A stretch of DNA of 64,000 nucleotides from Gemmatimonas sp. (GTDB taxonomy: Bacteria > Gemmatimonadota > Gemmatimonadetes > Gemmatimonadales > Gemmatimonadaceae): contig OZ257156.1 of NCBI GenBank assembly GCA_965279375.1, positions 1,888,001 to 1,952,000 of the forward strand. Direction: 5' to 3'. A model generated the notes under the pieces. That model was given only the letters and a program-made list of their open reading frames with translations. It was not told the origin of the DNA and searched no databases. The position numbers and the translations under genes are program-made. Within the stretch, counting starts at the first letter, position 1; every line of letters begins with the position of its first letter. This document shows positions 4,464 through 34,783 of this stretch, one piece after another.

Positions 4464-5972
4464 ATGAGCGCTCGCACCAAGGCTGCGCAGGCGGACGAAC
4501 AGTTTCGCGCTGCGCTCGCCATCGCGCAGGCGGGTGATGCGCCGCGCGCCATGAAGCTGCTCGATCGCACACTCATGCTTGACGCACGCCATCGTGGTGT
4601 GCGTAACGCGCTTGGTGTGTTGCGTCTCGAATCGGGAGACGTTGCCGGCGCGATCTCGCTGCTCAAGCCACTCGCGCGTGATGTTCCCGATGCGGCCGGT
4701 GTGCAGCTCAATCTTGGCAATGCGCTCGTGGCCGCGGGTCGCGCCAATGAGGCTATTGCGCCGCTCAAGCGCGCTACTGCCCTCGATCCCAACTCGGCGC
4801 TCGCCTGGTACGGCTATGCGCGCGCACTGCAGACCGCAGGACGTGCGGCAGACGCAGTGCACGCCTATCGTGTCGTGCTGCAGCACGCGCCGGCTCATGT
4901 GGAATCGCGCGCGAGCATTGCCGCCGCGCACAATTTTCTTGACGAATACGTCGAGGCTGAACGCGAAGCGCGCGAAGCGATACGCCTGATGCCATCGCAC
5001 GCGGGGGCACACCTGAATCTCAGCGTCGCGCTGCTGGCGCAGCATCGCTGGGCTGAGGGATGGGCCGAGTACGAGTGGCGCGAGCGGACGGCGCTGTTGG
5101 ATGGACAGCGTCGCAGCTGGGCGCGACCTCGCTGGGATGGTGGCGCGGTCGCGGGACGCACCGTGCTGGTGCACGCCGAGCAGGGATACGGCGATACGCT
5201 GCAGTTCGTGCGGTATCTGCCGGCGCTCCGTGCGCTGGGTACGCGCGTGGTGCTCCAGTGTCCGGCGCCGCTCGTCGCGCTGCTCGAGCATGCCGTGCTG
5301 GCTGACGAAGTGATTGCCTTTGGCGACGAGCTACCCCCGCATGATGTGCAGCTCCCGCTCACTGGGTTGCCACTTCGTTTGTGCTGTGACTCCGACGCCG
5401 CGGTCTACCGACAAGATGGCCCGTATCTGTCGACCGTCCCGTCGCGCGCCACGTCGCTACCCGAGCGCACGTCGGCAACGGAGCTGCGCGTGGGACTCGT
5501 GTGGGCGGGCAGCGGCACGCATGTGAACGACATGCATCGGTCGTGCGGGCTCGATGCGTTGCGACCGCTGTGGGATATCGCCGGCGTGTCGTGGTTCAGC
5601 TTGCAGGCGGGGCCGCGCGCGTCCGATCTCAAGGCGCTGCCGAAAGGCATCGTGGTGCACGATCTCGCGCCGCAGCTGCACGACTTTGCGGATACCGCCG
5701 CCGCCATCGCCGCGCTCGACATGGTGATCTCGGTCGATAGCGCGGTCGCGCATCTGGCTGGCGCGCTGGGGCGCCCGTGCTTGATGCTGGCGCCGCGCGT
5801 GGGGCTCGACTGGCGCTGGGCGAACGCGCCGGCTGGCGGCGAGGCGGATGGCAGCGGGTGGTATCGCTCGCTCGTGGTGGTACGTCAGGCGGCGCCGTCC
5901 GACTGGAGCGGCGCGGTGGCCGAGCTCGGGGCGCGCCTCGCCCGGCTCGCGACGACTTCCGCACGAGTGTAG
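4464..5972 (+). CDS. TPR-repeat glycosyltransferase (C-terminal GT9-like domain)
   Basis: N-terminal TPR helices; W.EGW.EYEWR, EQGYGDTLQFVRY, VGLVWAG, DFADTAA, VDSAVAHLAGALG, DWRW. Confidence 0.88.
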   Translation: MSARTKAAQADEQFRAALAIAQAGDAPRAMKLLDRTLMLDARHRGVRNALGVLRLESGDVAGAISLLKPLARDVPDAAGVQLNLGNALVAAGRANEAIAPLKRATALDPNSALAWYGYARALQTAGRAADAVHAYRVVLQHAPAHVESRASIAAAHNFLDEYVEAEREAREAIRLMPSHAGAHLNLSVALLAQHRWAEGWAEYEWRERTALLDGQRRSWARPRWDGGAVAGRTVLVHAEQGYGDTLQFVRYLPALRALGTRVVLQCPAPLVALLEHAVLADEVIAFGDELPPHDVQLPLTGLPLRLCCDSDAAVYRQDGPYLSTVPSRATSLPERTSATELRVGLVWAGSGTHVNDMHRSCGLDALRPLWDIAGVSWFSLQAGPRASDLKALPKGIVVHDLAPQLHDFADTAAAIAALDMVISVDSAVAHLAGALGRPCLMLAPRVGLDWRWANAPAGGEADGSGWYRSLVVVRQAAPSDWSGAVAELGARLARLATTSARV

Positions 5973-5975
5973 GGG

Positions 5976-6011
5976 CGGCAGCTTCTGCCGGTTCCGGCGC
6001 GCTCTGTGCCG
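5976..6011. promoter_or_regulatory. Tandem putative enhancer palindromes
   Basis: Perfect CGGCAGCTTCTGCCG (5976-5990) and degenerate GCGCGCTCTGTGCCG (5997-6011), 21 bp apart; IHF-like box at ~6046-6070. Confidence 0.65.
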
Positions 6012-6074
6012 GGTGTGTATTGGTGCTGGCCGCGTTCAGAATGCGTAATACGTTGCTGTTGAACGCGTTACGTG

Positions 6075-6091
6075 GTGGCACTGATCGTGCT
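6075..6091 (+). promoter_or_regulatory. sigma54 -24/-12 promoter of the asnB-like/SDR/GT operon
   Basis: GTGGCACTGATCGTGCT = TGGCAC, GG-N10-GC; 55 bp upstream of ATG 6147. Confidence 0.8.
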
Positions 6092-6146
6092 ATCCCATGC
6101 AGGGTCCCCGGTCTTCGTGACGCTGACTTCTGCAGGATCTCCGCTG

Positions 6147-7880
6147 ATGTGCGGTATCGCTGGTCTCCTTGATTACTCGCGTGGTGGGCTCGGTGCACTC
6201 ATCGATGAGTTCACCGACGCGTTGGCGCATCGGGGACCTGATGGGCGCGGCGTGTACGTGGAGGGACCCGTGGCGCTGGGGCACCGGCGTCTTTCCATTC
6301 TGGATCCGTCCGACGCGGGCCGCTGCCCGATGGCCGTGGAGTGTCCTGATGGGACCACGCTCTACATCACGCTGAACGGCGAGATCTACAACTTCCTCGA
6401 GCTGCGCGAGACGCTGCGCCGGGATGGCTACTGCTTCCGCAGCGAGACCGACACGGAAGTCGTGGCCGCGGCCTTTCATCGCTGGGGCGAAGACTGTCAG
6501 CGCCGCTTCAACGGCATGTGGGCGTTCGCGATCTGGGCGCCGGCCACGCAGTCGCTGTTCCTCTCGCGAGATCGCTTCGGCGTCAAGCCGCTCTACGTGT
6601 CGGTGCAAGGCACACGTGTCGCGTTTGCGTCTGAGATCAAGGCGTTTCTTGCACTGCCAGACTTCAAGCCGCGACTCAGCGAAGAGGCCGCGCAGCTGTT
6701 CTTCGCCAATCCCACCTCGTACGACGGCGTCACGCTCAGTACGGCGCTGGAAGGTGTGCATCGCGTGCCGCCCGGACACTCGCTCACCGTCACGAGCGCG
6801 GGGAGCAAAGGCTTTCGCCGCTGGTGGGAAACGCGCGATCATCTGCCGTCGATTCCGTCGCGCTACGACGAGCAGGTGGAGCAGTTCCGCGCGCTCTTTC
6901 TGGATGCCGTGCGGCTGCGCATGCGCAGCGATGTGCGTATCGGCACCTCACTGTCGGGTGGGCTCGATTCGAGCGCCGTCGCCTCTGCGGTGGCCCACGT
7001 GGCGCGTAATGATGCGCACGCCGACCTCGCACGTTGCGCGACCGATTGGCAGCGCACCTTCATCGCGACATTCCCCGGGCATGCGGTGGACGAACGCGAG
7101 TACGCGGACATCGTTGTCGCGCACACGCACGCATCGCCGACGTACTGGAGCTTCAATCCCGACACGACGCTCGCCGACATTCCCGCGAGCGTGTGGGCGA
7201 TGGATGACCTGAGCGGCGCACCGGCGGTGCCCGTGTTCAACATCTATCGCACGATGCGTGAGCATGGCGTCGTTGTCACGCTCGACGGGCATGGCGGCGA
7301 CGAACTCCTCGCCGGCTATGGCTGGTACCGCGACTTACCGCCCAACGCGCTGAACGATGCGTTGTACGCGGACTTTCATCGCACGCATCTTCCCGCGATC
7401 CTGCGCAACTTCGATGGTTGCTCGATGGCCAATGGCGTGGAAATCCGGTCGCCGTTCCTCGACTGGCAATTGGTGACCTACGCATTCGCGCTGCCGGCTT
7501 CCACCAAGTACGACGGCAGCTTCAGCAAGCGCATCCTGCGCGACGCGCTCGCCGGCATCATGCCCGACGCGATTCGCACGCGTACGTCGAAACTCGGCTT
7601 CGAGTCCCCGCTCATCGCGTGGGCCAACGGATCGTTAGGACCCGCGCTGCTCGCGGCGTCACGCACCGAGGCATGGCAGCGTGCGCCCAAGACGGCACGT
7701 GCCGCCGAACTCGCGGCGATCGTGCAAGCGCGAACGCCGTCTCGTTCGTGGAGCAGCGCCGACAGCGTGGCGATTTCGCTCGCATGGCGCGTGTTCGTCT
7801 TCGTGCTCTGGCAGGAGCTCTACCTGGGAACCGGCACGAGCAGCGTGGCAACGCACCCAGTACTCGCTGCGGCATCGTAA
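6147..7880 (+). CDS. Asparagine synthase (glutamine-hydrolysing) family amidotransferase, probably sugar amidation
   Basis: MCGIAG Ntn N-terminus, HRGPD, NGEIYNF, RDRFGVKPLY, SLSGGLDSS, G.GGDELLAGY, E.RSPFLD. Confidence 0.9.
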   Translation: MCGIAGLLDYSRGGLGALIDEFTDALAHRGPDGRGVYVEGPVALGHRRLSILDPSDAGRCPMAVECPDGTTLYITLNGEIYNFLELRETLRRDGYCFRSETDTEVVAAAFHRWGEDCQRRFNGMWAFAIWAPATQSLFLSRDRFGVKPLYVSVQGTRVAFASEIKAFLALPDFKPRLSEEAAQLFFANPTSYDGVTLSTALEGVHRVPPGHSLTVTSAGSKGFRRWWETRDHLPSIPSRYDEQVEQFRALFLDAVRLRMRSDVRIGTSLSGGLDSSAVASAVAHVARNDAHADLARCATDWQRTFIATFPGHAVDEREYADIVVAHTHASPTYWSFNPDTTLADIPASVWAMDDLSGAPAVPVFNIYRTMREHGVVVTLDGHGGDELLAGYGWYRDLPPNALNDALYADFHRTHLPAILRNFDGCSMANGVEIRSPFLDWQLVTYAFALPASTKYDGSFSKRILRDALAGIMPDAIRTRTSKLGFESPLIAWANGSLGPALLAASRTEAWQRAPKTARAAELAAIVQARTPSRSWSSADSVAISLAWRVFVFVLWQELYLGTGTSSVATHPVLAAAS

Positions 7881-8762
7881 ATGACGGCAACCGTGCGACG
7901 TCCAGTTGTGGTGGTAACCGGTGCAGGCGGCCTCGTGGGCCGACACCTCGTGCCGATGCTCGCCGAGCACTGGGATGTCGTCGCAGTCGCGCGTGCAGAG
8001 GGCGACGCGCGATCCCACGTGCAGAACGTGGTACGTGATCTCGCGACTGACGGCTTTGCCGATGGCTTGCCCGCGAAGGTGGATGCGGTCGTGCATCTCG
8101 CGCAGTCGCGTCGTTTTCGCGAGTTCCCGGAAGGTGCGGCCGACGTACTGGCCGTGAATGTCGCGTCCACCGAGCGGCTGCTCGCGTACGCGGCGGCGGC
8201 GGGAGCGTCGCACTTTGTGTACGCGAGCTCGGGTGGCGTGTATGCGCCCTCCAGCGCTGCATACCATGAGGACGGTGCGGTCGCGTCGCCTGCGCAGGCA
8301 GGATGGTATCAGGCGTCCAAGCTGGCCGCTGAGGCGTTGGTGCATGGGTATCGCACGCGGCTGGTTCCCGTCGTGCTGCGTCCGTTCTTCATCTATGGCG
8401 CCGGACAGCGGCGCCACATGCTCATTCCGCGTCTGGCCGACACGCTCAAGCGCGGCGATGCCGTGCAACTGGCCGGACTCGATGGCATGCACATCTCGCC
8501 GACGCATGCGTCCGATGCGGCGCGCTGCATTGTGCGATCGCTGCAGTTGCGCGAACCCGCCACGATCAACGTGCGCGGCCCCGAGGTGCTTTCGCTGCGC
8601 ACGATCGGCGAGATGCTGGCTTCAGCAATGGACGTACCCGCACGCTTCGTCACCAACGACAACACCGGCCCTGACTACGTGGCCGACGATGCGCGTATGC
8701 GGGCACTGCTCGGCGATGCCGAGTGTCGCTTCGCTGAGCATCTCCATACCATCCTTCCGTGA
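7881..8762 (+). CDS. NAD-dependent epimerase/dehydratase (extended SDR)
   Basis: VTGAGGLVG, VVHLA, SSGGVY, YQASK (YxxxK). Confidence 0.88.
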   Translation: MTATVRRPVVVVTGAGGLVGRHLVPMLAEHWDVVAVARAEGDARSHVQNVVRDLATDGFADGLPAKVDAVVHLAQSRRFREFPEGAADVLAVNVASTERLLAYAAAAGASHFVYASSGGVYAPSSAAYHEDGAVASPAQAGWYQASKLAAEALVHGYRTRLVPVVLRPFFIYGAGQRRHMLIPRLADTLKRGDAVQLAGLDGMHISPTHASDAARCIVRSLQLREPATINVRGPEVLSLRTIGEMLASAMDVPARFVTNDNTGPDYVADDARMRALLGDAECRFAEHLHTILP

Positions 8763-11725
8763 GTTCGATGCGACTCGCCGGTCATCGCCCGCTCCCACGG
8801 CAGAAGCCGTTGCGCATTCTCATCGGTCCCAAGGAGATCGGTGGTCAGATCCCCGACTATGCGTCGGGCTTCCGCGCGCTCGGTCACGACGTCACAACGG
8901 TCATCCGGGACCCCAACCCGCTGTTCCCGGATCTGCCGTACGACGTCGATCTCTCGAAGAACCGCGATCCCGGGCTCATCGCAAAGCTCATCGAAGAGCA
9001 TGACGTGTTCGTCTTTCAGTATGGCGAAACGCTGGTGCCCGGTTCGGTCGATCTTCCGGTGATTCGTGCTGCGGGCAAGTCGATCATTGCGATCTGCAAT
9101 GGCGATGACATTCGACATTCGTCGGCGTACCACCAGGAGTTCGGCATTCCGCCTGAAGTGCACGGCGAGTTCTACGTGAAGGATCCGCTGCCGAGGTCGA
9201 TGCAGACGCTACGGCTCATGGAGCGATACGCGTCGCTGATGGTGTCCGTGCCGAATCAGTCCGGGCTGGCGCTCCGTCCGTACATGCACTTCGCGTACGT
9301 GCTGGATCAGTCGTTGTATACGGCGCACATCCCCGATCGCGAGGTACCGGTGGTGGTGCATGCGCCGTCGGATCGGGCGTGCAAGGGAACGCGCGAGATT
9401 CTCGCGTCGCTTGACCGACTCTCTGCGAAGGGAGTTCGTTTCGAGCTCAAGCTACTCGAGAAGGTGCCCAATGCCGTCGTGCGCGAGACGCTGCGCGATG
9501 CCGATGTGGCCATCGATCAGCTGTTCGTTTCGTACGGGAAGTTCGCCGCGGAGGCAATGGCCTCTGGCTGCGCCACGGCGTGCGTGACCTATCCCGACAT
9601 CGAGCCTGCCGCGCACATGCGGCCGCTGTGGCACATCGACGCGGAGGGGATCGACGCGCAGCTCGAGACGCTTCTCACTGATCGTGCGCTGCGTCGCTCG
9701 CTGGCCGAACAGGGACGGCCGCACGTCGAAGCCATCCATGATCGGCCAACGGTATGCAAGCGCCTGCTCGACGCGCTGGCCGCAGCCATCGACGGCACCC
9801 TTCGCTACGACTACTACCCGACGTTCTTCGCCGAACGGTATGTGCTCCCTGATCGCGTCGAGCTACCGCGCCATCAGCGTCAGCTCGCGAGTGAGGTGAT
9901 TGCCGAGCACGGTCTTGCCAAAGGCGTCGACGTGATTGCGCTGGCGCGTCGCGGACTGATCGACCCGGTGCTGCTCGCCGGCAGCGAACGTGTGCGTCTC
10001 TGGCGTGGGGACCACGGCCTGACCTCAGATGGTACGGAGCCGAGCGCGATGTCCGCGCGCTGGAAGGCGTTTCGACGTCCGTCCAATTCGGCCACAGAAC
10101 AGACCATCGACGCGCCCACGGCGGATCGCCACGTCGCACGTTTGCACGCGTTGACAGCGCTGACCGGAGAACTGCCGGGCAAGGCGCCGGTAGACGCAGC
10201 GCTCGTTGAGTACCTGCGCCTGGGAGTGCCTGCGCTCGCACTGCAAACCGTGTTGCCGCAGGCGATGTCGAGCCTCGCAGCGCGGCGTGCGGCCGGATTG
10301 CTGTTGCTCGGCTGTGGGCAGCTTGCTGACGCAGAGGAAATGCTTGGCACACTGCTGACGGGTGCCGACAGCGATCCGATCCTGGCGTACTACCACGCGG
10401 TCGCGCGTGTCTTGCAGGGCAAGAGCGACGGCACCGGTGAGGCATTGCAGGCAGCGGTGAAGCGGCTGCCGCGCGATCCGAGTGTGCACCTCTTCGGCAG
10501 CACGCCCATTCTGCACAACAGGTACTGGGCCGAGGCGCTGCGCGAAGGTGGCGTTGATGCGCGCACTTTCATGCTCGAGTACTACGGTGCGATCAATCGA
10601 CGTGAGGACTTCGATCACTACCTGATCGACTTCGTGCCGACCTGGACGGAGCCGCGATACGCGCGGTTGCTGGCACCGTATCACGCGTTTCTGTTCGCTG
10701 CACTCGCCGGGCAGGTGCTGCATACGTCCTTTGACGGTGGCGCGCTTCAGGATACGGCATGTGCCGCTATCGAGCCGGCGTTGCTGCAAGCCGCGGGAGT
10801 GAAGTCGGTGGTGATCACCTACGGCGGCGACGGTGCGATGTACTCACGCATTCGCGACCTGTCGGTGCGCCACGCGTTTCAGCTTTCGTATCCTGACGCG
10901 GCGCGCAAGGAACCGCAGGTGGAAGCGAAGGTGGCGCGCTGGACGCGCGACGCAGATTGCATCATCGGCAACGTGCACTCGCTCGACGGCCACGGTCGCT
11001 GGGACATTCTCCTCGGCAATTGCGCGCAGATCGATCTGACAGCATGTCAGCCGATCGAGCACTACAGCGATCGCGACGGACGCAATGGCGCCGTGCGTGT
11101 GCTGCACAGCCCCAATCATCGCGGGGTGAAGGGGACCGAGTTCCTTGTCGCGGCCGTGGAGCAGCTTCGCAACGAGGGGCTGCAGGTAGAGTTGGTATTG
11201 CTGGAGCGTGTGCAGAATCGCGAGGTGCTCGCGCGCATGCGCACCGTCGATATTCTCGCGGAGCAGTTCATTCTGCAGTTCTACGGCCTCAGCGGCATCG
11301 AAGGGCTGGCGATGGGACTGCCGGTGGTCTCCAATCTGACGATGGACGACTATCTCCAGGTGCTGCGTCGCTTCAGCTATCTCGACGAGTGTCCCGTCGT
11401 GGCCGCCGCACCTGAGACGCTGGTGGATGTCCTGCGAAAGCTCGTCGTGAACCCTGCACTCAGGGAAACACTCGGCCGCGCTGGCCGTCGCTATGCGGAG
11501 AAGTATCACTCCTACGCGACGACACGCTTCCTGTTCGGCGCCATTCACTCGCGCATCCTCCACGGAAGCGCCGTGGATCTCATGAATCTGTTTCATCCAC
11601 TCAAGTCCGACTACGTGCGGTCGAAACCGATCAGCCATCCGCTGTCATCCAGTCGCTTGGTCGACACGCCGGATGGGCTTCGGCTTGAAGCCCCCGCTCG
11701 CGTGCCGCGCTCCAGCGCAGCCTGA
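8759..11725 (+). CDS. Large two-module GT-B (GT4-like) glycosyltransferase with a helical/TPR-like linker
   Basis: Two homologous modules: HAPSDRACKGT...DQL...YG..AAEAMASG and HSPNHRGVKGT...EQF...YG.SGIEGLAMGLPV. Confidence 0.75.
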   Translation: MSSMRLAGHRPLPRQKPLRILIGPKEIGGQIPDYASGFRALGHDVTTVIRDPNPLFPDLPYDVDLSKNRDPGLIAKLIEEHDVFVFQYGETLVPGSVDLPVIRAAGKSIIAICNGDDIRHSSAYHQEFGIPPEVHGEFYVKDPLPRSMQTLRLMERYASLMVSVPNQSGLALRPYMHFAYVLDQSLYTAHIPDREVPVVVHAPSDRACKGTREILASLDRLSAKGVRFELKLLEKVPNAVVRETLRDADVAIDQLFVSYGKFAAEAMASGCATACVTYPDIEPAAHMRPLWHIDAEGIDAQLETLLTDRALRRSLAEQGRPHVEAIHDRPTVCKRLLDALAAAIDGTLRYDYYPTFFAERYVLPDRVELPRHQRQLASEVIAEHGLAKGVDVIALARRGLIDPVLLAGSERVRLWRGDHGLTSDGTEPSAMSARWKAFRRPSNSATEQTIDAPTADRHVARLHALTALTGELPGKAPVDAALVEYLRLGVPALALQTVLPQAMSSLAARRAAGLLLLGCGQLADAEEMLGTLLTGADSDPILAYYHAVARVLQGKSDGTGEALQAAVKRLPRDPSVHLFGSTPILHNRYWAEALREGGVDARTFMLEYYGAINRREDFDHYLIDFVPTWTEPRYARLLAPYHAFLFAALAGQVLHTSFDGGALQDTACAAIEPALLQAAGVKSVVITYGGDGAMYSRIRDLSVRHAFQLSYPDAARKEPQVEAKVARWTRDADCIIGNVHSLDGHGRWDILLGNCAQIDLTACQPIEHYSDRDGRNGAVRVLHSPNHRGVKGTEFLVAAVEQLRNEGLQVELVLLERVQNREVLARMRTVDILAEQFILQFYGLSGIEGLAMGLPVVSNLTMDDYLQVLRRFSYLDECPVVAAAPETLVDVLRKLVVNPALRETLGRAGRRYAEKYHSYATTRFLFGAIHSRILHGSAVDLMNLFHPLKSDYVRSKPISHPLSSSRLVDTPDGLRLEAPARVPRSSAA

Positions 11726-11729
11726 GGAA

Positions 11730-12395
11730 ATGATGGCAAAGCCTCTCGTAATCATCGGTACCGGACTCTTCGCCGAAGTCGCCACCGCGTACTTCGAAGC
11801 CTTCACCGACTACCGCGTCGCGGCCTTCTCGTGCCACGACCGATTTCGGCAGGCAGAGACTGTCTACGGTCGTCCGCTATTGGCCCTCGAGACCCTCGGG
11901 GATTCGTACGCAGCGTCTGACGTGGATGTGTTCGTCGCGATCGGCTACGGCAAAATGAATCGGATGCGTCAAGCCGTGTACGAGGAGATGCGTGAACGCG
12001 GCTATCACTGCACGTCGTTCGTGCATCCGAACGTCAGGATCTGGGAATCAACGAAGCTTGGCGACAATGTGTTCATCTTCGAAGACAATACCATCCAGCC
12101 ATTCACGCACATTGGCAACAATACGATTCTCTGGAGCGGCAATCACATCGGTCACCACAGCACGGTGGGAGATCACTGCTTCATCTCTTCGCACGTGGTC
12201 ATCTCCGGTTCGTGCACGCTAGGCAACAATCTCTTCATCGGTGTGAACGCCACCTTCCATGACGGGTTGACCATCGCCGACGACTGCCTGATTGGCGCGG
12301 GCGCGATCATCTCCAAGAGCACGAAACCCAAGGAAGTGTTTGTGCCAGCGTCCACCAAGCCGTTCCCCAAGAACTCCGACGAGATCGGGTTCTGA
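11730..12395 (+). CDS. Sugar O/N-acetyltransferase, NeuD/PglD hexapeptide-repeat family
   Basis: LVIIGTG N-terminus, VFVAIGY, left-handed beta-helix repeats with HIGHH; RBS GAGGA precedes ATG. Confidence 0.88.
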   Translation: MMAKPLVIIGTGLFAEVATAYFEAFTDYRVAAFSCHDRFRQAETVYGRPLLALETLGDSYAASDVDVFVAIGYGKMNRMRQAVYEEMRERGYHCTSFVHPNVRIWESTKLGDNVFIFEDNTIQPFTHIGNNTILWSGNHIGHHSTVGDHCFISSHVVISGSCTLGNNLFIGVNATFHDGLTIADDCLIGAGAIISKSTKPKEVFVPASTKPFPKNSDEIGF

Positions 12396-22035: not shown

Positions 22036-22052
22036 AGCACGATCCATGCCGA
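22036..22052 (-). promoter_or_regulatory. sigma54 -24/-12 promoter of the SDR-asnB-like-...-GNAT operon
   Basis: Minus strand TCGGCATGGATCGTGCT = GG-N10-GC, ~70 bp upstream of 21966; IHF-like AAAGCGTTTGATCGCAACACTTTA at ~22058-22081. Confidence 0.75.
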
Positions 22053-22114
22053 ATCGTAAAGCGTTTGATCGCAACACTTTAGGTCGAAAGCGCTCCTGAG
22101 AATCCCCGCTTGGC

Positions 22115-22150
22115 GGGCGACCATTGCCGTGACACCGGCAACTTCTGCCG
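22115..22150. promoter_or_regulatory. Tandem putative enhancer palindromes
   Basis: GGGCGACCATTGCCG (22115-22129) and perfect CGGCAACTTCTGCCG (22136-22150), 21 bp apart. Confidence 0.68.
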
Positions 22151-27091: not shown

Positions 27092-27108
27092 GGCAACAGG
27101 CATGCCGC
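27092..27108 (-). promoter_or_regulatory. sigma54 promoter of the leftward GT4-GT2 operon
   Basis: Minus strand GCGGCATGCCTGTTGCC = GG-N10-GC with TTGC, 35 bp upstream of 27056. Confidence 0.72.
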
Positions 27109-27155
27109 GCTGAGAGATTCTCTAAGTGATTGCAATTAATGGCGTTGCGTTGAAC

Positions 27156-27254
27156 CGGCAGAATCGGTCCGTCACGCCATCGGCAATTGTCGCCGTCCGG
27201 CGCGGTCCCAAAATGCCCGGCAGTTCTTGCCGTTTGTCCGCGCGCTATCTGCCG
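27156..27254. promoter_or_regulatory. Cluster of putative enhancer palindromes shared by divergent promoters
   Basis: CGGCAATTGTCGCCG (27181-27195), perfect CGGCAGTTCTTGCCG (27218-27232), and half-matches at 27156 and 27240. Confidence 0.65.
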
Positions 27255-27316
27255 GATTTTGGCGAGGCGGACTCATTCCTCATCGCGTAACTGTATGCCC
27301 AACAGCGAGTTGCGGC

Positions 27317-27333
27317 GTGGCACGAATCGTGTA
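27317..27333 (+). promoter_or_regulatory. Putative sigma54 promoter of the rightward GT4-GT2-GT4 operon
   Basis: GTGGCACGAATCGTGTA: perfect -24 TGGCACG, but the -12 reads GT instead of GC; otherwise resembles 6075 and 22036. Confidence 0.55.
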
Positions 27334-27386: not shown

Positions 27387-29363
27387 ATGACCAGCAGCTA
27401 CGCAATGAACCCCTCGCTTCCGGCAACGATTCCCAGCGCGCAGGTCAGCTCCGGCGGTGCGCCGCGCTTTCAGATCCCGGCGTTCCCGGATGATCCGGAG
27501 TGGGAGTTGGCAGCAGGCATCGAGGCGGCGGGGGGCGTATCGGCGGAGATCCGCGCATTCCTCGACGCACAGATGGAGACGGGCGACGTGCTGCTGGACC
27601 TCGCCCCCGGCTTCGGCTTTGTGGCACTCAGCGCGACCACCGCACCCGGTGGCCTGCCGACGGTGTTCGTGGGCGGGATCAATGAGGATCGCCTGCAGGT
27701 GCTGCAGGACGCGGCGGTAGACGTCGGTGGGTGGCTGGAGTCGGTTTCGCTGACGGATGGCTCGGATCTCGCCGAATTGCTGGACACGCGTCTGGATCTG
27801 CAGGGGCGAGTCTTCGTGCATGTCGCGGCCGAGGACGTCGCAGAACTGTGCTCGCGTCTGCGTCCGTTGCTCGCGCAGGAGCGAGTGCTGGCAATCTGCG
27901 TGACCAATGCGCATGCCAGCGACGCCTGGAATGAAGCGGCCGACGCGATGATTCTCGCGGGCATGACGCCCTGCGCGCTGGTCGAACAGGAAGGCGATGT
28001 GGTGATGATGCGCATTTCGGGCGCGCCCACTGCGCCGGTGATCGCACTGCCGTCCGCGCTGGCGGGTGACGCGATGATGGCACCTGAATTCGACGCGCTC
28101 AGTGCACTCCCCATGGAGCTGACCGAGGTGTTCGATGGAGACCATTCGGACGAGGTCTTTCCCGCGTCCTTCCCGTCGCAGGTGACGCCCGCCGCAACCT
28201 TGGAAGACGCCGACGTCGCGTCGGTGTCGTCATCTGTACCGCGCGCCACGTACGTCGAAGAGTTGCCGCGCTGGAACGCCATGCGCGATGGCCTGTCGCT
28301 CATCACGTCGCACACGCGTACCGGCTACGGGGTGACGGGGGCGCACCTGCTGCGCGCCCTGCAGCAGCGCGGTGCTCCAGTCACGCTCTTTCCGATCGGC
28401 CCGGTGGATTCGTCGCTGACGGATAACCCACAGTTGCAGCAGGCGCTCAATCTGCAGGATGCCTATCGGCCGGACGTGCCGAGTGTGCGCCTGGCCCAGC
28501 AGTTCGACCTGGCCATGCACGTCGGACGCGGTGCGCGAGTGGCGTTCACCATCTTCGAGCTCGACACCTTCACGCCGCGCGAGATGCATCACTTGCGCAG
28601 TCAGGACGCCATCTTCGTCTGCTCCGACTGGGCACGCGAAGCATGCTTGCAGAATGGGCTTGACGAGACGCCGATCCACATCGTGCCGCTTGGTGTGGAC
28701 CGCGCGATCTTCCATGAGAACGTACAGCCCAAGCGTAGCTGGTCCGAGACGGTGTTCATGCAGGTGGGCAAGCTCGAGCCGCGCAAAGGCCAGCTCGATC
28801 TCCTGCGCGCCTTCGAGGCCGCGTTCACGCCCAAGGACTCCGTGCGGCTCGTGCTCTCCTGCGGCAATCCGTTCATCTCGCAGGCCGATCTCGACACACT
28901 GCTCCGGCCGTTCCGGAAATCGCCGTTGGCGTCAAAGATCTCGCTGCTCACCAACGAGTTGCCGAACTTGCGCAGCGTTGCCGAGCTGATGGCTGCGGCA
29001 GATTGCGGCGTCTTCGCCGCCCGCGCTGAGGGGTGGAATCTCGAAGCGCTGGAGATGTTGTCGATGGGCAAGCAGGTCATCGCCACCGATTACTCCGCGC
29101 ATACGGAGTTCTTGAACAGTGAGAATGCGCGCTTGATCGACATCGATGCGCGCGAGTACGCGCATCCGGGTCGGCACCCTGGACAGTGGGCGGCGTGGGG
29201 CAATGCGCAGCATGAGCAGCTCGTGGCACACCTGCGTGACGTGCATGCGGCCAAGCAGGCCGTCGCACTGCCGTTGAATACGGCCGGCATCGCCACCGCG
29301 CATACCTTCAGCTGGGAAGGCTCCGCTGACGCGCTGATCCGCTCGCTCTACGCCATCGCATGA
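27387..29363 (+). CDS. GT4 glycosyltransferase with an N-terminal degenerate FkbM-like methyltransferase domain
   Basis: N-terminal GDVLLDLAPGFG; C-terminal TGYG, TIFELD, VPLGVD, EPRKG, AEGWNLEALEM. Confidence 0.82.
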   Translation: MTSSYAMNPSLPATIPSAQVSSGGAPRFQIPAFPDDPEWELAAGIEAAGGVSAEIRAFLDAQMETGDVLLDLAPGFGFVALSATTAPGGLPTVFVGGINEDRLQVLQDAAVDVGGWLESVSLTDGSDLAELLDTRLDLQGRVFVHVAAEDVAELCSRLRPLLAQERVLAICVTNAHASDAWNEAADAMILAGMTPCALVEQEGDVVMMRISGAPTAPVIALPSALAGDAMMAPEFDALSALPMELTEVFDGDHSDEVFPASFPSQVTPAATLEDADVASVSSSVPRATYVEELPRWNAMRDGLSLITSHTRTGYGVTGAHLLRALQQRGAPVTLFPIGPVDSSLTDNPQLQQALNLQDAYRPDVPSVRLAQQFDLAMHVGRGARVAFTIFELDTFTPREMHHLRSQDAIFVCSDWAREACLQNGLDETPIHIVPLGVDRAIFHENVQPKRSWSETVFMQVGKLEPRKGQLDLLRAFEAAFTPKDSVRLVLSCGNPFISQADLDTLLRPFRKSPLASKISLLTNELPNLRSVAELMAAADCGVFAARAEGWNLEALEMLSMGKQVIATDYSAHTEFLNSENARLIDIDAREYAHPGRHPGQWAAWGNAQHEQLVAHLRDVHAAKQAVALPLNTAGIATAHTFSWEGSADALIRSLYAIA

Positions 29364-31156
29364 CCGCAGGTGTGGCGTCGGTGATTCGCATCGGCATCCT
29401 GACGCACAACGCGTTGCACCACACGAAACGGTGCATCGCTTCGCTCCAGGCGCACACGAGCGTGCCGTGGCAGGCGGTTATTCTCGATAACGCCTCAAGC
29501 GACGACACCCGCGCTTGGCTCGCGTCGCTGAACGATCCGCGCATCGAGGTGGAGCTGCACGCCGAGAACCTCGGCGTCGGTGGTGGACGCAACTGGCTAT
29601 TCGGCCGGCTGTTGCCGCACATGCGCGACGATGAGCTGCTCGTTTTTCTCGACAACGACATCGAGGTCGGAGCGGGGTGGGCAGAGCCGTTCGTTGACGC
29701 CTTTGCCGCGATGCCGCGACTGGGTGTGGCCGGCCGATGGGCGTTCTCGATGCACGTCCACGAGACGTGGCGCGATATCCTCTCGGAACACGCCGGCGCT
29801 CCCGGCCCGGTGGACACCGTGCAAGGGTGCTGCTTCTGGGTGCGAGGGGCCGCCGCGCGCGCGCTCGGAGGCTTCGATGAGGCGCTCGGACGCTTCTGGC
29901 ACGAAGACGACGACTACTGCATTCGCGCACTCCACGCCGGCTGGGAAGTGCAACGCGTGCGTAATGCAGCGATCACGCACCACGAGCACGGCTCGGGCGT
30001 CGCGCTCAAGCCCGAGCGTATCGCTGGCTCGTGCGCCAATCAGGCGTACCTGATCGACAAGTGGCGCGCGCTGGGCGCGATCGATGCGTACGGAGTGCCA
30101 AAGCGCCCGACACCCGAAGTGACGGCGCCGTTGCGCGAAGCACTCGCCACGCGACTCGGCCGCACACAGCCCTTGCTGCGCACGGAGATGCAAGGTGTGA
30201 TTGCCGATGCTTCCGCGCTGCTACGCGGAGACATTGCCGATGATCGCGCCGCAGTGCTGGCGACACCTGCGGTGAGGCGGATGCTGTCGGATGCTGCGAC
30301 GCGGGAGAGCGGGGAGACGCAGCGCCGCGCGCAGCTCGCGCTCGAGCGCATTGCGCGCATCCTGGCAGAGCGCCGGGCCGAAGTCGACGACACAGAGACT
30401 ATCGAGCGCGCGCGTAGCGGTGGTCGCGCGTTCAGCACACTCTGCGATCCATCCGCGTGGGATGATGCCCGATGGATGGAGAGCTATCAGCGGCACTTCC
30501 GCGACGGCGCCGGCGCCGACTACTACGCGCGGTCCGAGATCGCGTGGCGCGACGGACAACTACTGCACGTCGCACGTGCGACGGGTGCCCTGCGCGCTGG
30601 CATGCGTGTGTTGGTGTTGGGCCACGCGAGCGAGCGCGTGATCGCGCCATTGACGCATGTGGCCGCCGAGGTCGCGGTACTCGATCATGAGATGCAGACG
30701 ATGGAGGTCATTGCGGGCAGTGCGACGCGCACGCTTGGCGATGCAACGCTCATGACTGGGCGCTGGTCTGAGGCGCAATCGCTCAGGGCCACGCCATTCG
30801 ATCTGGTGCTCTGCCCGAATGCCGCGCGCTACGCACCGCCGGCCGACTATGGCGCGGTGCTCTCGGCGCTGGCGCAACTCACGCGCACCGGTGGCCATGT
30901 GGGCCTCGGTGCCAGCGTGCGACTGACTGGGCCGCGCAATGGTCGATGGCTCGAGCGCGACGCGCTCACCGACGATGCCGCGCTCGCACGGCATGGTGTC
31001 CGTCGCCTTGGGAAATTCGACGACCGCATTTGCGACGAAACACTCTTGGCCGCCATTCCGCCCGAAGGACAGGCCAGTTGGCGCCCGCAGCTAGCGCGCG
31101 CCGTTGGTCCGCATCGTGTCACACTGGCCACGCTCTTTTGCCGACGCACCGAATAG
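29360..31156 (+). CDS. GT2 glycosyltransferase fused to a degenerate methyltransferase-like domain (paralog of 22786-24726)
   Basis: ILTHN, LDNASSDDT, NLGVGGGRN, FLDND, FWHEDDD. Confidence 0.85.
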   Translation: MTAGVASVIRIGILTHNALHHTKRCIASLQAHTSVPWQAVILDNASSDDTRAWLASLNDPRIEVELHAENLGVGGGRNWLFGRLLPHMRDDELLVFLDNDIEVGAGWAEPFVDAFAAMPRLGVAGRWAFSMHVHETWRDILSEHAGAPGPVDTVQGCCFWVRGAAARALGGFDEALGRFWHEDDDYCIRALHAGWEVQRVRNAAITHHEHGSGVALKPERIAGSCANQAYLIDKWRALGAIDAYGVPKRPTPEVTAPLREALATRLGRTQPLLRTEMQGVIADASALLRGDIADDRAAVLATPAVRRMLSDAATRESGETQRRAQLALERIARILAERRAEVDDTETIERARSGGRAFSTLCDPSAWDDARWMESYQRHFRDGAGADYYARSEIAWRDGQLLHVARATGALRAGMRVLVLGHASERVIAPLTHVAAEVAVLDHEMQTMEVIAGSATRTLGDATLMTGRWSEAQSLRATPFDLVLCPNAARYAPPADYGAVLSALAQLTRTGGHVGLGASVRLTGPRNGRWLERDALTDDAALARHGVRRLGKFDDRICDETLLAAIPPEGQASWRPQLARAVGPHRVTLATLFCRRTE

Positions 31157-31174
31157 GACCACACAGGACCACTC

Positions 31175-32308
31175 GTGAAGATTCTGCAGATCGCTTTTGC
31201 CGCGACCGACCAAAGCGGCGTGCACCGGAAGCTCGCCGAACAGGTGACGGCGTTGCGCGCGTGCGGCCAAGAGGTGGAGTCGCTGGTGTTTGCCGACACG
31301 CGCATTGCGCCGGCGCCCTCCAACGCACCCTATCGCCTCGTCGACATACAGGGTGGCGGCTTTGGTCTGGCCAGTCGCTCGGTGGCGTTTCATGCGTGCT
31401 GGGAGGCGGTGGACCAGCTGCGTCCTGACGTGGTGTACATGCGCTATCCCATCTACGATGGGCACGTGCTGCGTTTCGTGCAGGAAGCACCGCCGGTCGT
31501 GTTCGAACTGCAGACCATCTTCAAGAACGAGGCGCCTCCGCAGGTGGCCGCATTCGAGGAGAGTTGGGCTGCACGGGTACTGCCGCATACGTCGGGGCTG
31601 GTGGCGGTAACGAACGAGATACTCGAGTACGAGACCGATCGCGCCAAGTGGGCTATTCCGGGGCACGTGATGCCGAACGGTGCTGATCCTGCAACCATTC
31701 CCTTCACCACGCCGGCGTTGGCCAGCGATCGCGTGGATCTGTTGTGCGTCGCGTCGTACTACCCGTGGCACGGCATCGATCGTTTGCTGCTGGGCATGGC
31801 GGCCGAGCCTGATGTGCAGGACGTGCATCTGCATCTCGTGGGTGAGGGCCCGACCATCGCGGATCTCCGGGCGATGGTGCAGGACGCCGGGCTGCAGTCG
31901 CGCGTGCACTTTCACGGACACGTCCCTGTGAAGGAGCTAGGGAAGTGGTATCCCAAGGCGCATGTGGCCATTGGCTCGCTGGCGCCGCACCGTGTTGGCC
32001 TTCGTGAACTCGCGGCGCTCAAGCATCGGGAATACGCGCTGCGTGGCATTCCCATCGTCCTCGCTGGTGGCGATGCCGATTTCCCCAGCACATTGCCGTG
32101 GCTGCGTCAGATTCCGGCCGACGATTCACCCGTGTCGCCGCGCATGCTGCGTGCCCTCGCGCACGGCTGGACCAACGAGGTGCGCCGTCGTCAGATCCGC
32201 ATGTGGGCGGAGTCGCATCTGTCGTGGAACGTCAAGGCGCCGCAACTCGTGGAATTCCTGCAGCGATGCGCCAGCCAGTCGAACGCGCGCACGGGAGCGG
32301 CCGCGTAA
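31175..32308 (+). CDS. GT4 glycosyltransferase
   Basis: MKIL, SGV..K, PNG, PWHGIDRL, VGEGP, LK.REY..RGIP. Confidence 0.85.
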   Translation: MKILQIAFAATDQSGVHRKLAEQVTALRACGQEVESLVFADTRIAPAPSNAPYRLVDIQGGGFGLASRSVAFHACWEAVDQLRPDVVYMRYPIYDGHVLRFVQEAPPVVFELQTIFKNEAPPQVAAFEESWAARVLPHTSGLVAVTNEILEYETDRAKWAIPGHVMPNGADPATIPFTTPALASDRVDLLCVASYYPWHGIDRLLLGMAAEPDVQDVHLHLVGEGPTIADLRAMVQDAGLQSRVHFHGHVPVKELGKWYPKAHVAIGSLAPHRVGLRELAALKHREYALRGIPIVLAGGDADFPSTLPWLRQIPADDSPVSPRMLRALAHGWTNEVRRRQIRMWAESHLSWNVKAPQLVEFLQRCASQSNARTGAAA

Positions 32309-32354
32309 GCGGTGCCTGCGGCGCACAGTTAAACAGCGCGGAGGCCCGCGATGC

Positions 32355-33806
32355 CTACGGCGTGGTTGGTGCGGTGGAGTGCGTGGTGCTGGCGATGGAA
32401 GCGGCGATCGCGTCACGGAGCTGACGGACAACATCGGGCCAGTCGCGCGGTCGGGCAGGTCTGAGCAGCCGCAGGGATGGGTACCACGGCGTGGTGTTCT
32501 CGCGGAGCCCCCAACGCCAGTCAGGGACATGCTGCAGCATGACCCAGGTACGCACGCCAAGCGCACCGGCGAGATGCGCGATGCCGGTGTCGGTGGTGAC
32601 GAGTCCATCGAGCTGCGTGAGAATCGCCGCTGTCTCCGCCCAACTGCCCAGAGCGGGGAGCTGGTGGAGCGCCGGCAGTGATGGCGCGCCGGCCTCACCC
32701 TGCTGCAGGGCGATCCAGGTGACATCGGGAATGGCGAGCAGCTCTGGCAGCAGCGCAGGATCGAGATCGCGGGTGACACGCCCCGGAAACGCCGGGTTAC
32801 CCGCCCACACGAGCCCAAGGCGCAGCGTGCCCGGTCGTGCCGGTGGAAGTGCGACCCTTCCGCTGGGCGCCGGTGCACGCAGGTACGGCACGCGCTCGCC
32901 ACGCACATTGGTGTCGAGTCCCAATACGTGCGGCAACGACAGCAGCGGCACATGCCAGTCTGTCTCCGGAGCCTGACCACGAGCGACCACCTCGATGCCG
33001 TTCTGCGCGAGGAGTGAGACGGCGTCCGCGTGGCATTCAACGACGACGCGAGCGGGTAGTCTCAGGGCGAGGTCGGCGAGGAATCGCAAAAACTGGAACT
33101 GGTCGCCAACGCCTTGCTCCGCGGTGACGAGCACGGACGCACCCTTTATAGATGCCGTGCCGTCCCATCGCACGGCCGCGGTGTGGGGCGTTGGCAAGGG
33201 GCGCGCCTCGAACTGACGCCAGCCTTCGGCGCTGGATGCGCCAAGCAGCGTGGTGTACGCGCGCTGCACGCGGGTGGGTCCGTGATTTGGCCGCGCGCGG
33301 TCCGCCTGATCGAGCCAGCGCAGTGCCCCACGCAGATCGCCCAGGTCGTGGCGGATTTGCGCGGCGGTGAGAAGAAAGGCCGGGTGTGTGGGCGCGAGGG
33401 TAAGCGCGCGCTGGATGAGCGGCCACGCCTCGCCGGGCGCGCCCGTGGTGCGTTTGGCACCGGCCAGCGCACCCAGTGCCGCCGGATCGCGGGGCAACAC
33501 GCGGAGCACGCGCTCGAAGCAGACCACGGCTTCGGTCGGGGCACCGGCGTCCAGCAGCTCGGCGCCGAGCGCGTGGAGTTCGGTGACGTCGTCCGGGAGG
33601 GTGGCGAATGCGACGAGCAGCGTACGGCGCGCCGCGGCCATGTCGCCAGCGAGTCGATGCGCATTGGCGAGCAGCCGGGTGACGCCCGACTGCTCGGGCG
33701 CGGCGGCGTGAGCACGGCGGAAGCAGGCGATCGCTGCGGCGAAATCACCGCGTTCGATGGCGTCCTGACCGGCGACCAGGTCGGCAACGACGGCGTCAGT
33801 CAGCAC
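32355..33806 (-). CDS. TPR-repeat glycosyltransferase (GT9-like), paralog of 4464-5972
   Basis: TPR helices; EQGVGDQFQFLRF, LGLVWAGNP, DTGIAHLAGALG, PDWRW, PWYPSLRL; divergent from fliC. Confidence 0.88.
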   Translation of the reverse strand: MLTDAVVADLVAGQDAIERGDFAAAIACFRRAHAAAPEQSGVTRLLANAHRLAGDMAAARRTLLVAFATLPDDVTELHALGAELLDAGAPTEAVVCFERVLRVLPRDPAALGALAGAKRTTGAPGEAWPLIQRALTLAPTHPAFLLTAAQIRHDLGDLRGALRWLDQADRARPNHGPTRVQRAYTTLLGASSAEGWRQFEARPLPTPHTAAVRWDGTASIKGASVLVTAEQGVGDQFQFLRFLADLALRLPARVVVECHADAVSLLAQNGIEVVARGQAPETDWHVPLLSLPHVLGLDTNVRGERVPYLRAPAPSGRVALPPARPGTLRLGLVWAGNPAFPGRVTRDLDPALLPELLAIPDVTWIALQQGEAGAPSLPALHQLPALGSWAETAAILTQLDGLVTTDTGIAHLAGALGVRTWVMLQHVPDWRWGLRENTTPWYPSLRLLRPARPRDWPDVVRQLRDAIAASIASTTHSTAPTTP

Positions 33807-33908
33807 GCCGATGCGGGGAAAAATCGTGCGTTTTGCGAGGGAACGACAGCGCTGGTAACGGCCGGTGCCAGCGGTGTGAGAGCGCGAAAAAAGTTCAAGA
33901 AAAAACGC

Positions 33909-33935
33909 TCAAGTTCTGTTTGGCTGAGACGAGAC
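33909..33935 (+). promoter_or_regulatory. Possible sigma28 promoter of fliC with an A-tract UP element
   Basis: TCAA-N15-GACGAGAC preceded by A-tracts; weak -10 match. Confidence 0.45.
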
Positions 33936-33971
33936 TGTTGTCTGACCGCGACCCGGACCCCGGGGGCGGGC

Positions 33972-34005
33972 GAGGCACGGATGCCTCATCTCAACATCAT
34001 GGAGG
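33972..34005 (+). promoter_or_regulatory. CsrA-type sites in the fliC 5' leader
   Basis: Hairpin GAGGCA-CGGA-TGCCTC (33972-33987) with GGA in the loop, plus CATGGAGG overlapping the RBS; fliW is in the locus. Confidence 0.65.
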
Positions 34006-34015
34006 ATTGTCCCAC

Positions 34016-34783
34016 ATGCGTATTAACACGAACGTCGGCGCGCTCACCGCTACCCGCAGCATCTTCGTCAACAACATGGCGACAGAGAACAGCATGCGGA
34101 AGTTGAGCTCGGGTCTCAAGATCAGCCGCGCGGCTGACGACGCGGCCGGCTTGTCCATCTCGAACAAGCTCCGCACGCAGAGCCGCTCGCTGACGCAGGC
34201 GGCCTCGAACGCCGAGCAGGGCAACGCGATGTTGCAGATCGCTGAAGGCGCGGCCTCCACGATCCAGCGCATCATCGAACGTCAGAAGGAACTGATCACG
34301 CAGCGCGAGTCGACGGGTAACAACAGCACGGTGACCCAGACGCTCGGTACGGAAGTCGCGACGCTCCAGACCGAATCGGCTCGTATCCTCGCCGACGCGG
34401 ACTTCCAGGGCGCCTCGGTGTTCGCCTCGCTCACGTTCCAGATCTCCGACTCCTCGACGAACGGCACGGTGACGGTCAACTCGTCGCTGACGCTCACGAC
34501 GCTGACGGCGACGTCCACGCTGGCCAACGCTGACACCGCGCTCGACACGGTCAACTCCGTGCTGGCGACGATCGGTGCCGGTCAGAACGTGCTCGACTAC
34601 ACGGTGCAGAACTTGAAGTCGTCGGTCGTCAACGTCCGCGCGGCTGAGTCCACGATCCGTGACGTCGACATGGCGGACGAAATGGCCAACTTCACGAAGA
34701 ACAACATCCTGAAGCAGGCGGCCGAAGCAATGCTGTCGCAGGCGAATCAGGGTAGCCAGAGCGTGTTGCAGCTCCTGCGCTAA
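34016..34783 (+). CDS. fliC: Flagellin (255 aa, D0/D1 only)
   Basis: MRINTN..AL, KLSSGLKISRAADDAAGLSIS, AES.IRDVDMA.EM..FTKNNIL.QA..AML.QAN....VLQLLR; RBS GGAGG. Confidence 0.97.
   Translation: MRINTNVGALTATRSIFVNNMATENSMRKLSSGLKISRAADDAAGLSISNKLRTQSRSLTQAASNAEQGNAMLQIAEGAASTIQRIIERQKELITQRESTGNNSTVTQTLGTEVATLQTESARILADADFQGASVFASLTFQISDSSTNGTVTVNSSLTLTTLTATSTLANADTALDTVNSVLATIGAGQNVLDYTVQNLKSSVVNVRAAESTIRDVDMADEMANFTKNNILKQAAEAMLSQANQGSQSVLQLLR

Follow-up and report, generated by a model that had tools for sequence, protein, structure and literature searches.

A putative flagellin O-glycosylation cassette in the fliW–fliC slot of Gemmatimonas

The flagellar gene cluster of a Gemmatimonas sp. 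genome (NCBI GenBank assembly GCA_965279375.1; a single contig of 5.31 Mb, OZ257156.1) carries between fliW and fliC a block of glycosyltransferase and sugar-tailoring genes, which is analysed here in a window of 64,000 nucleotides (contig positions 1,888,001 to 1,952,000; coordinates below are those of the window). The locus is probably a flagellin O-glycosylation cassette that would work stepwise in the cytoplasm without a lipid carrier. A previous sequence-only reading had proposed a lipid-carrier-free, flagellum-coupled pathway with protein-recognising glycosyltransferases guided by tetratricopeptide repeats (TPR-GTs), and this proposal is supported, by inference, by the divergent position of a TPR-GT next to fliC in 18 of 19 complete fliW–fliC intervals, by co-occurrence of the enzyme with flagellin, by promoter elements and by homology to the flagellin glycosyltransferase FlmG.

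Gene content of the cassette

The block of ~29 kb between fliW (end at 4443) and fliC holds 21 genes according to a codon-model gene caller, and gene calls and Pfam/NCBIfam typing agree with the number and classes of genes listed in the sequence-only reading. These are two TPR-GTs, four GT4-type and two GT2 glycosyltransferases, two AsnB-type amidotransferases, two short-chain dehydrogenases/reductases (SDRs) and one DegT aminotransferase, together with two hexapeptide acyltransferases, a GNAT/FemAB protein, two methyltransferases with S-adenosylmethionine (SAM) motifs and, on weak matches, a GH32/GH130-like propeller. The deacetylase-like protein has no Pfam match itself, its 72% identical homologue matching Polysacc_deac_1 at E 0.01, and the methyltransferase-like protein lacks both a Pfam match and the DxGxGxG motif. 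Catalytic motifs are kept where examined (AsnB N-terminal Cys, SDR YxxxK, DegT lysine, two SAM motifs). In order, the features of the locus and its flanks are:

1299..2768, minus strand: NtrC-type sigma54 activator adjoining the locus (Pfam), which likely binds the CGGCA-N5-TGCCG palindrome
2859..2885, plus strand: sigma28-like promoter upstream of flgL-fliW-TPR-GT A (pattern scan)
2957..3868, plus strand: flgL, left flank (Pfam)
3940..4443, plus strand: fliW, left flank (PF02623)
4464..5972, plus strand: TPR-GT A, FlmG homologue of the D..H subfamily, accessory clade, 20 nt after fliW
5976..6090, plus strand: palindrome (5976) and sigma54-like box (6076) upstream of asnB1 (pattern scans)
6147..7880, plus strand: AsnB-type glutamine amidotransferase 1 with N-terminal Cys, likely uronamide-making (family and motif)
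7881..8762, plus strand: extended SDR 1, epimerase or reductase (family and motif)
8768..11725, plus strand: 985-aa glycosyltransferase with two related GT4-like modules
11673..12395, plus strand: NeuD/PglD/VioB-type sugar acetyltransferase, true start probably ~11730 (TIGR03570, 172 bits, cut-off 160.8)
12420..13058, plus strand: SAM methyltransferase 1 (Pfam, motif)
13055..13978, plus strand: GH130/GH32-like beta-propeller (weak matches)
14039..15160, minus strand: GNAT/FemAB-like acyl or aminoacyl transferase (Pfam/NCBIfam)
15163..16374, minus strand: DegT/DnrJ sugar aminotransferase, best solved relative perosamine synthetase
16387..17304, minus strand: SAM methyltransferase 2 (Pfam, motif)
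17301..18269, minus strand: LpxD-like N-acyltransferase, paralogue of a separate lpxD-like gene at 3.73 Mb
18256..19008, minus strand: polysaccharide-deacetylase-like protein (weak; match via homologue)
19018..20922, minus strand: AsnB-type glutamine amidotransferase 2 (Pfam, motif)
20953..21966, minus strand: extended SDR 2, NDP-sugar 4-epimerase or dehydratase family
22037..22150, minus strand: sigma54-like box (22051) and palindrome (22136) upstream of SDR2 (pattern scans)
22178..22789, minus strand: methyltransferase-like protein without clear SAM motif
22786..24726, minus strand: GT2a, GT2 followed by a C-terminal domain, with 36% identity to GT2b and an uncertain start (24681-24726)
24723..27056, minus strand: GT4a, GT4 domain plus second domain (Pfam)
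27093..27332, divergent promoter region: sigma54-like boxes at 27107 (minus) and 27318 (plus), palindromes at 27181 and 27218
27387..29363, plus strand: GT4b, SAM-methyltransferase-fold domain plus GT4, core companion
29360..31156, plus strand: GT2b, GT2 plus weak methyltransferase-like C-terminal domain
31175..32308, plus strand: GT4c (Pfam)
32355..33806, minus strand: TPR-GT B, core gene kept in the genus and divergent from fliC, TPRs in residues 1-189 followed by a GT9-like fold, the predicted primer
33900..34015, plus strand: fliC promoter of sigma28-like type, then conserved 5' leader containing a GGA hairpin (putative CsrA-type site)
34016..34783, plus strand: fliC, single 255-aa flagellin, likely acceptor

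The fliC start, previously set at 33833, is corrected to ~34016 (255 aa). Flippase, polymerase, ABC exporter and priming transferase, whose absence from the island had been claimed, were not found among the 21 genes by Pfam scan and hydrophobicity count, and none of the 21 encodes a multi-pass membrane protein (at most one hydrophobic 19-mer per protein, compared with 6-7 in the genome's own Wzx proteins by the same count); two Wzx genes and the one priming transferase of the genome are located at 2.43-2.55 Mb, ~0.5 Mb away. Similarly, the statement that maf, pseI and neuB are not recognisable holds genome-wide. Maf (PF01973) has 0 matches in the complete genome, two weak NeuB matches are DAHP synthases, the sole CMP-sugar synthetase is KdsB, and neither NeuB/PseI nor a CMP-pseudaminate or CMP-legionaminate pathway was found in the genome.

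On the other hand, the description of the island as 'inserted' is not borne out. The island has a GC content (0.60-0.68) close to that of the flanks, no gene of a mobile element appears among the window genes and no telling repeats were found; a recent foreign insertion is unsupported by GC or repeats, and the locus is a resident variable locus.

Which sugar(s) the tailoring enzymes would produce can be outlined in part. The AsnB-type enzymes likely form a uronamide, by analogy with wbmC/I/Z, candidates for O-antigen uronamide synthesis in Bordetella (PMC2615507, in excerpt); the exact sugars are not assignable from the SDR or DegT matches, and we infer an amidated, N-acylated and methylated glycan. 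The 658-aa GT4b has at its N-terminus a domain with class I SAM-methyltransferase fold and altered glycine motif that recurs across the genus, alone or fused. In two relatives (G075, G132) TPRs, an FlmG-like domain and the whole of GT4b form one chain; because of this fusion TPR-GT and GT4b may be linked as consecutive steps.

Two FlmG homologues of a sister subfamily

FlmG is both required and sufficient to glycosylate flagellin, to which it binds via its TPRs (PMC7591256), and the donors described are pseudaminic acid (Pse) and legionaminic acid (Leg) (PMC7591256; bioRxiv 2022.03.25.485807; both in excerpt). For reference, the Caulobacter vibrioides flagellin cluster was retrieved with the fljK primer from PMC7591256; the ends of a 596-aa gene match the published flmG primers, and the flmG-internal primer has no match in the genome collection. 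The C-terminal-domain profile of the window family matches this FlmG with 96 bits over residues 279-593 (277 of 282 positions), and TPR-GT A aligns with it at 26% over 480 aa (blastp, E 4e-20) with motifs in common throughout.

The AlphaFold model of TPR-GT B (pLDDT 96) shows TPR helices to residue 189, followed by a catalytic domain which is nearest to GT9 heptosyltransferases and TibC by structure comparison (Z 16.3-17.2). In sequence searches TPR-GT A matches Pfam Glyco_transf_9 over 48 residues only (24.5 bits, cut-off 22) and TPR-GT B not at all, the family profile reaches WaaF at E 0.04 only, a PDB search with TPR-GT B retrieves TPRs only, and whole-chain Foldseek places SPY and OGT on top with a poor TM score of ~0.3.

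Both window TPR-GTs carry the heptosyltransferase signature D(T/S)(G/A)xxH, the residues of which contact ADP-heptose in WaaC (PMC3559599, in excerpt), while FlmG has S..N instead. The equivalent of the catalytic base Asp13 is kept in both and in most homologues; donor-site Asp and His (D..H) are present in 62 of 75 domains, both window proteins included. These 75 domains fall in two groups in the tree, one of which contains FlmG together with seven proteins of the genus g55, and all nine proteins of that group are without the donor-site Asp and His. The g55 genes of the FlmG clade are located beside flagellin, with a PseI-like cluster in the two loci that are long enough. A 23-row tree fully supports the split and rejects a clade of TPR-GT B with FlmG (approximately unbiased test, p 1e-15, for a group named after earlier trees had been seen). 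By alignment and phylogeny, the window TPR-GTs are full-length FlmG homologues in a sister subfamily, not FlmG orthologues. TPR-GT A and TPR-GT B fall in separate clades, A and B, in a quick tree.

Members of the FlmG clade itself also occur in the phylum: four loci of three genomes (L080, L081, L082 and L112 in G163, G183 and G184), with up to five FlmG-clade genes per genome and a PseI-like cluster, lie beside a divergent 271-aa flagellin opposite to the flgL strand and form by sequence a canonical-looking FlmG system in Gemmatimonadota.

A fixed core and an exchangeable middle

In a genus sample of 36 other genomes, FliW is found in 35, flagellin in 33 and the TPR-GT catalytic domain in 33, versus 2, 2 and 1 of 24 comparison genomes from other families. 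Of the misses in the genus, G008 (80% complete) has no FliW or flagellin match either, in G004 the TPR-GT gene is cut by a contig end beside fliC, and the third is G001, where fliW adjoins fliC. The gene after fliW in the draft G004, which has no full-length NeuB match, encodes a GT29 domain (sialyltransferase family, E 3e-12) fused to methyltransferase domains (L056:1784-3409).

The 19 intervals that are whole on one contig, including G107 and G172 and leaving out L095 of G128, span 0.3-29.6 kb, the largest being that of this window. In 17 of the 18 with a TPR-GT divergent from fliC, this gene belongs to clade B, which has an SH-aLRT of 100 in the quick tree without G107 and G172, the former placed by a later tree and the latter by best blast match. 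The middle of the slot, by contrast with this fixed gene, varies from 0 to ~20 genes. Pseudaminate-type genes with a NeuB-family synthase occupy the slot of G005 and G009 and the broken intervals of G020 and G015, and a LuxC/LuxE/acyl-carrier module with GT41 is found in G011, G107 and G193, where the slot (L006:1468-13541, L083, L110) also contains an AMP ligase, a reductase, a WlbA-like oxidoreductase and DegT. Other contents are rml genes (G024), CDP-glycerol-type genes (G007, G021) and, elsewhere, formyltransferases and WbqC. The term 'non-nonulosonate' previously given to the glycan accordingly fits this genome, which has no NeuB/PseI, but not the relatives, as their modules in the same slot include PseB/C/G/I pathways; a NeuB match at E <1e-28 is present in 8 of 38 genomes.

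No Wzx/Wzy was detected in 108 representative unassigned slot proteins scanned (of 145 unassigned, 117 clusters), and only 1 of 476 proteins of the relatives' loci has three or more hydrophobic segments. The sole multi-pass protein in the intervals examined (L084:8408-10150, G172) has 580 aa, ~6 segments and no Pfam match and lies behind a sigma54 box. Among further variants of the locus, G033 has two tandem fliW genes and several flagellins (L034), and G002 a tandem flagellin array preceded by three TPR-GTs (L002).

The constancy of the core gene also bears on its role. That TPR-GT B would be a non-catalytic flagellin-binding scaffold, with priming by the GT2/GT4 enzymes, is in line with its staying one clade whatever donor module the island contains; yet the catalytic-base Asp and donor-site Asp/His are kept as described above, and the TPR-GT is the only gene of the interval in G013 and G051, which makes a mere scaffold extremely improbable.

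The presumed acceptor, fliC, is the only flagellin gene of the genome, the second flagellin-family match being flgL, and 19 of 45 middle residues of FliC are Ser/Thr. Outside the genus, Ser/Thr make up 0.30 of the flagellin middle in genomes with the enzyme and 0.25 in those without (p 0.004), a difference of little weight as five of the 10 carriers belong to one genus. TPR-GT A at least, encoded directly behind flgL-fliW, could have a different flagellar acceptor (FlgL, FlgK, FliD or hook). Clade A is distinct from clade B, its genes come after fliW, and an Azospirillum homologue is encoded upstream of hook and flgK genes; however, core gene B shares the intergenic region with fliC in 18 of 19 intervals, the FliC middle is Ser/Thr-rich and the known FlmG substrates are flagellins, and we regard another acceptor as very unlikely.

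A separate idea, that the glycan replaces missing outer flagellin domains, was rejected, as flagellin lengths overlap (271-393 aa in 10 genomes with the enzyme and 272-392 aa in 15 without, outside the genus) and G001 has a short flagellin without the island. The 'minimal flagellin' noted previously is indeed short with its 255 aa, but its tie to the island is lost, since shortness is a trait of the genus.

Co-occurrence with flagellin in the phylum

An even draw of 161 phylum genomes was surveyed with the catalytic-domain profile, scoring the best candidates per genome, with kin not independent. The profile matches in 18 of the 161 genomes and flagellin in 41; 16 have both, and in all 16 a copy is located between flgL and fliC or beside a flagellin gene. 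The synteny of TPR-GT and fliC, which the sequence-only reading had suggested to follow across Gemmatimonadota, is thereby found in every flagellated carrier. Homologues unlinked to flagella and retained in non-flagellated relatives would speak for another role; only 2 of 120 genomes without flagellin carry the enzyme (L086 in G148 and L087 in G167, in unrelated surroundings). Flagellated genomes without the enzyme have fliW adjoining fliC in the 13 loci read. The system is tied to flagella but optional and dispensable. Outside the phylum, TPR-GT9 proteins are likewise common in Azospirillum, Ralstonia and Burkholderia. One Azospirillum homologue, in which Cys replaces Asp, sits in a pseG/pseI cluster, and plasmid p1 of Azospirillum sp. 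TSH100 (L117) has five TPR proteins, four with the glycosyltransferase motif, with GT2, GT4 and an FkbM methyltransferase by a very large Ig-like gene; this may be a comparable system with an adhesin as its target.

This distribution is also informative about remodelling of lipopolysaccharide (LPS), in which the locus would alter core or O-unit in step with flagellation, and the enzymes resembling GT9 and LpxD would modify lipid A-core and not protein. Like the transferases of the island, those of the LPS core are soluble. The GT9 fold with its heptosyltransferase signature, an LpxD-subfamily match above cut-off and the AsnB-type amidotransferases as O-antigen uronamide candidates in Bordetella (PMC2615507, in excerpt) all fit such a function, but only 2 of 120 genomes without flagellin have the enzyme although LPS is expected in all, the transferase is fused to TPRs and homologous to FlmG over its full length, and two canonical GT9 genes, an lpxD-like gene, Wzx and the priming transferase are located elsewhere in the genome. 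LPS as the target is improbable.

Promoter elements shared with flagellar genes

Sigma28-like sites are present upstream of flgL, flgM and cheA, and fliC is preceded by a conserved element related to them. Inside the island, each of the four operon starts has a sigma54-like box with a nearby CGGCA-N5-TGCCG palindrome, a combination shared by 7 of 61 intergenic boxes genome-wide, four of the seven in the island; TPR-GT B has no sigma54 box. As the patterns were defined after inspecting the island and six relatives, the counts contain some circularity, and related genomes are not independent samples: the box occurs in ~1% of shuffled gaps, and in the relatives in 32 of 96 operon-start gaps (27 with palindrome) versus 2 of 55 gaps read toward a gene end, the boxed gaps including modules unrelated to those of this window. 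Palindromes precede flagellar operons at window 1239, 2843, 5976, 22136, 27181 and 27218 and at genome C1:1872126, 1872150 and 1876834. Of 26 strict intergenic palindromes, 8 are in the 80-kb flagellar region versus 0.3 expected. Five of the eight are outside the island, before core flagellar genes including the basal-body operon and the NtrC-type activator gene, and constitute the least circular part of the promoter evidence. The palindrome is a candidate binding site of this flagellar sigma54 activator (1299-2768).

The stretch from TPR-GT B to the fliC promoter contains conserved GTGA(C/G) repeats (33840-33900), a possible regulator site. The fliC 5' leader (33940-34015) has two hairpin-like elements kept in 15 genus members, one with a GGA loop, and csrA is located inside the flagellar cluster. 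Leader and csrA suggest a FliW-CsrA-flagellin switch, a known regulatory model.

The shared elements are relevant to a more restricted proposal, that the core alone (TPR-GT B and GT4b) modifies flagellin, while the variable modules mainly supply nucleotide sugars to O-antigen or exopolysaccharide elsewhere, or serve both. None of the 21 island genes encodes a uronic-acid dehydrogenase, so the pathway would already depend on outside pools, and for Aeromonas caviae and Burkholderia there are reports of genes that serve both LPS and the flagellin glycan (PMC3958885, in excerpt). Against this, swapped modules of very different content have the sigma54 box and flagellar palindrome in common and bring GT2/GT4 transferases of their own, and separate paralogues of AsnB and SDR are present in the Wzx locus at 2.43-2.55 Mb. 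A core-only role has on this evidence a low probability.

Proposed pathway

Within the cytoplasmic O-glycosylation model, TPR-GT A would share a transcript with flgL-fliW, and transcription of the four internal operons would depend on sigma54 together with the neighbouring flagellar activator. TPR-GT B would bind unassembled FliC via its TPRs and place the first sugar on Ser/Thr in the Ser/Thr-rich middle. GT4b would add, and perhaps methylate, the next sugar, and GT4a, GT4c, GT2a, GT2b and the double glycosyltransferase would lengthen or cap the chain. The SDRs, DegT, the NeuD- and LpxD-like acyltransferases, GNAT, the two AsnB enzymes and the methyltransferases would make the amino, N-acyl, uronamide, O-methyl sugar(s) of a strain-specific outer part. 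Glycosylated FliC would then be exported and assembled, and exchange of the middle module would alter the surface type of the filament.

The priming donor cannot be CMP-Pse or CMP-Leg in this genome, but is likely a genome-wide nucleotide-diphosphate sugar. The leading candidate is ADP-heptose, proposed tentatively from the donor-site signature; HldE- and GmhA-like genes are present just below cut-offs. In the pseudaminate islands, a GT2 fused to a Capsule_synth-like domain (weak match) could add pseudaminate in place of the D..H enzyme. A more far-reaching, and rather doubtful, extension would have the whole D..H sister subfamily as TPR-guided protein O-heptosyltransferases, with LPS-pathway heptose as universal flagellin primer, the swappable cassette adding serotype-like outer glycans and pseudaminate as an optional cap, all in the flagellar sigma54 regulon.

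Besides the circular element in the promoter counts, several observations weigh against flagellin glycosylation by this route. In G001 (L001; 90% complete), a natural loss of the whole cassette, fliW lies directly beside a 257-aa flagellin without TPR-GT, and 25 of 41 flagellated phylum genomes are without the enzyme, which is dispensable because of these two findings. Flagellin length is unlinked to island presence. Of five loci viewed outside the phylum, one is beside flgK, one in a pseG/pseI cluster, one beside a giant Ig-like protein and two are unrelated. The window TPR-GTs differ from FlmG in clade, donor-site residues and donor pathway, so that the FlmG substrate transfers by analogy only. 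As to the donor, 51 of 55 genomes tested have HldE irrespective of the island, so that it is non-discriminating, and D..H enzymes also occur in Pse-containing islands, so the signature does not fix the donor.

If correct, this would be the first flagellin glycosylation system for Gemmatimonadota. The analysis adds a sister subfamily split from FlmG and marked by its donor signature, a constant core around an exchangeable middle, the fused chains and a motif of the flagellar regulon. The locus points to an FlmG sister subfamily that would act without Pse/Leg and prime a longer variable glycan, which makes the donor range of the FlmG family testable; the natural series of 0-21 genes gives a build order of the pathway, and for glycoengineering a soluble transferase targeted by its TPRs is attractive. 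The heptosyltransferase reading, if true, would give a function to the large unannotated TPR-GT9 family.

Relation to known systems

That linked gene clusters direct the stepwise glycosylation of flagellin in the cytoplasm is well established (PMC7591256; PMC12645811; PMC3958885; all in excerpt). The literature searched, largely without subscription papers, contains nothing relevant on flagellin glycosylation in Gemmatimonadota; PMC10581226, on this lineage, mentions flagellar genes and has no word starting with 'glycosyl'. With the same exception of most subscription papers, no paper title in the literature searched concerns non-nonulosonate FlmG homologues or flagellin heptosylation.

OGT and SPINDLY (GT41) share the TPR plus glycosyltransferase architecture, but the catalytic domain in the window is GT9-like and not GT41. 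Listeria GmaR, a GT2 enzyme, has a TPR plus glycosyltransferase architecture as well. WaaC and WaaF (GT9) resemble TPR-GT B in fold (Z 17.0 and 16.3, root-mean-square deviation 3.0-3.4), in the Asp13 equivalent and in the D261/H266 signature, whereas TPR-GT B is only 13-14% identical and fused to TPRs, and canonical GT9 genes are elsewhere in the genome. The autotransporter O-heptosyltransferases TibC/BAHT likewise have a GT9-like fold (Z 16.8), and TibC, which transfers heptose to proteins, is a precedent for the ADP-heptose idea (PMC4358343, in excerpt). Unlike their loci, that of the window has no autotransporter, and its enzyme has a TPR module.

The flagellin glycosylation islands of Pseudomonas, Aeromonas and Campylobacter have an established layout; the predicted primer of the window is not an FgtA-type GT2. 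Like these islands, the fliW–fliC locus is a variable cluster of transferase and sugar-tailoring genes beside flagellin without flippase or polymerase (PMC3958885, in excerpt), differing in a predicted primer that is not Maf, in the fliW-fliC slot and in the new phylum. As expected of a flagellin glycosylation island, it lies beside flagellin in the flagellar cluster, combines soluble glycosyltransferases with tailoring enzymes and is variable in content around a fixed transferase.

The closest relative is FlmG of Caulobacter crescentus and Brevundimonas subvibrioides, which is soluble, has an N-terminal TPR and a C-terminal GT-B part with homology over ~480 aa and is encoded beside flagellin genes. 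The window TPR-GTs, however, form a separate clade on a long, fully supported branch, have D(T/S)(G/A)xxH where FlmG has S..N and belong to a genome without Pse or Leg pathway; moreover, six further glycosyltransferases at the locus would imply an oligosaccharide and not one nonulosonate.

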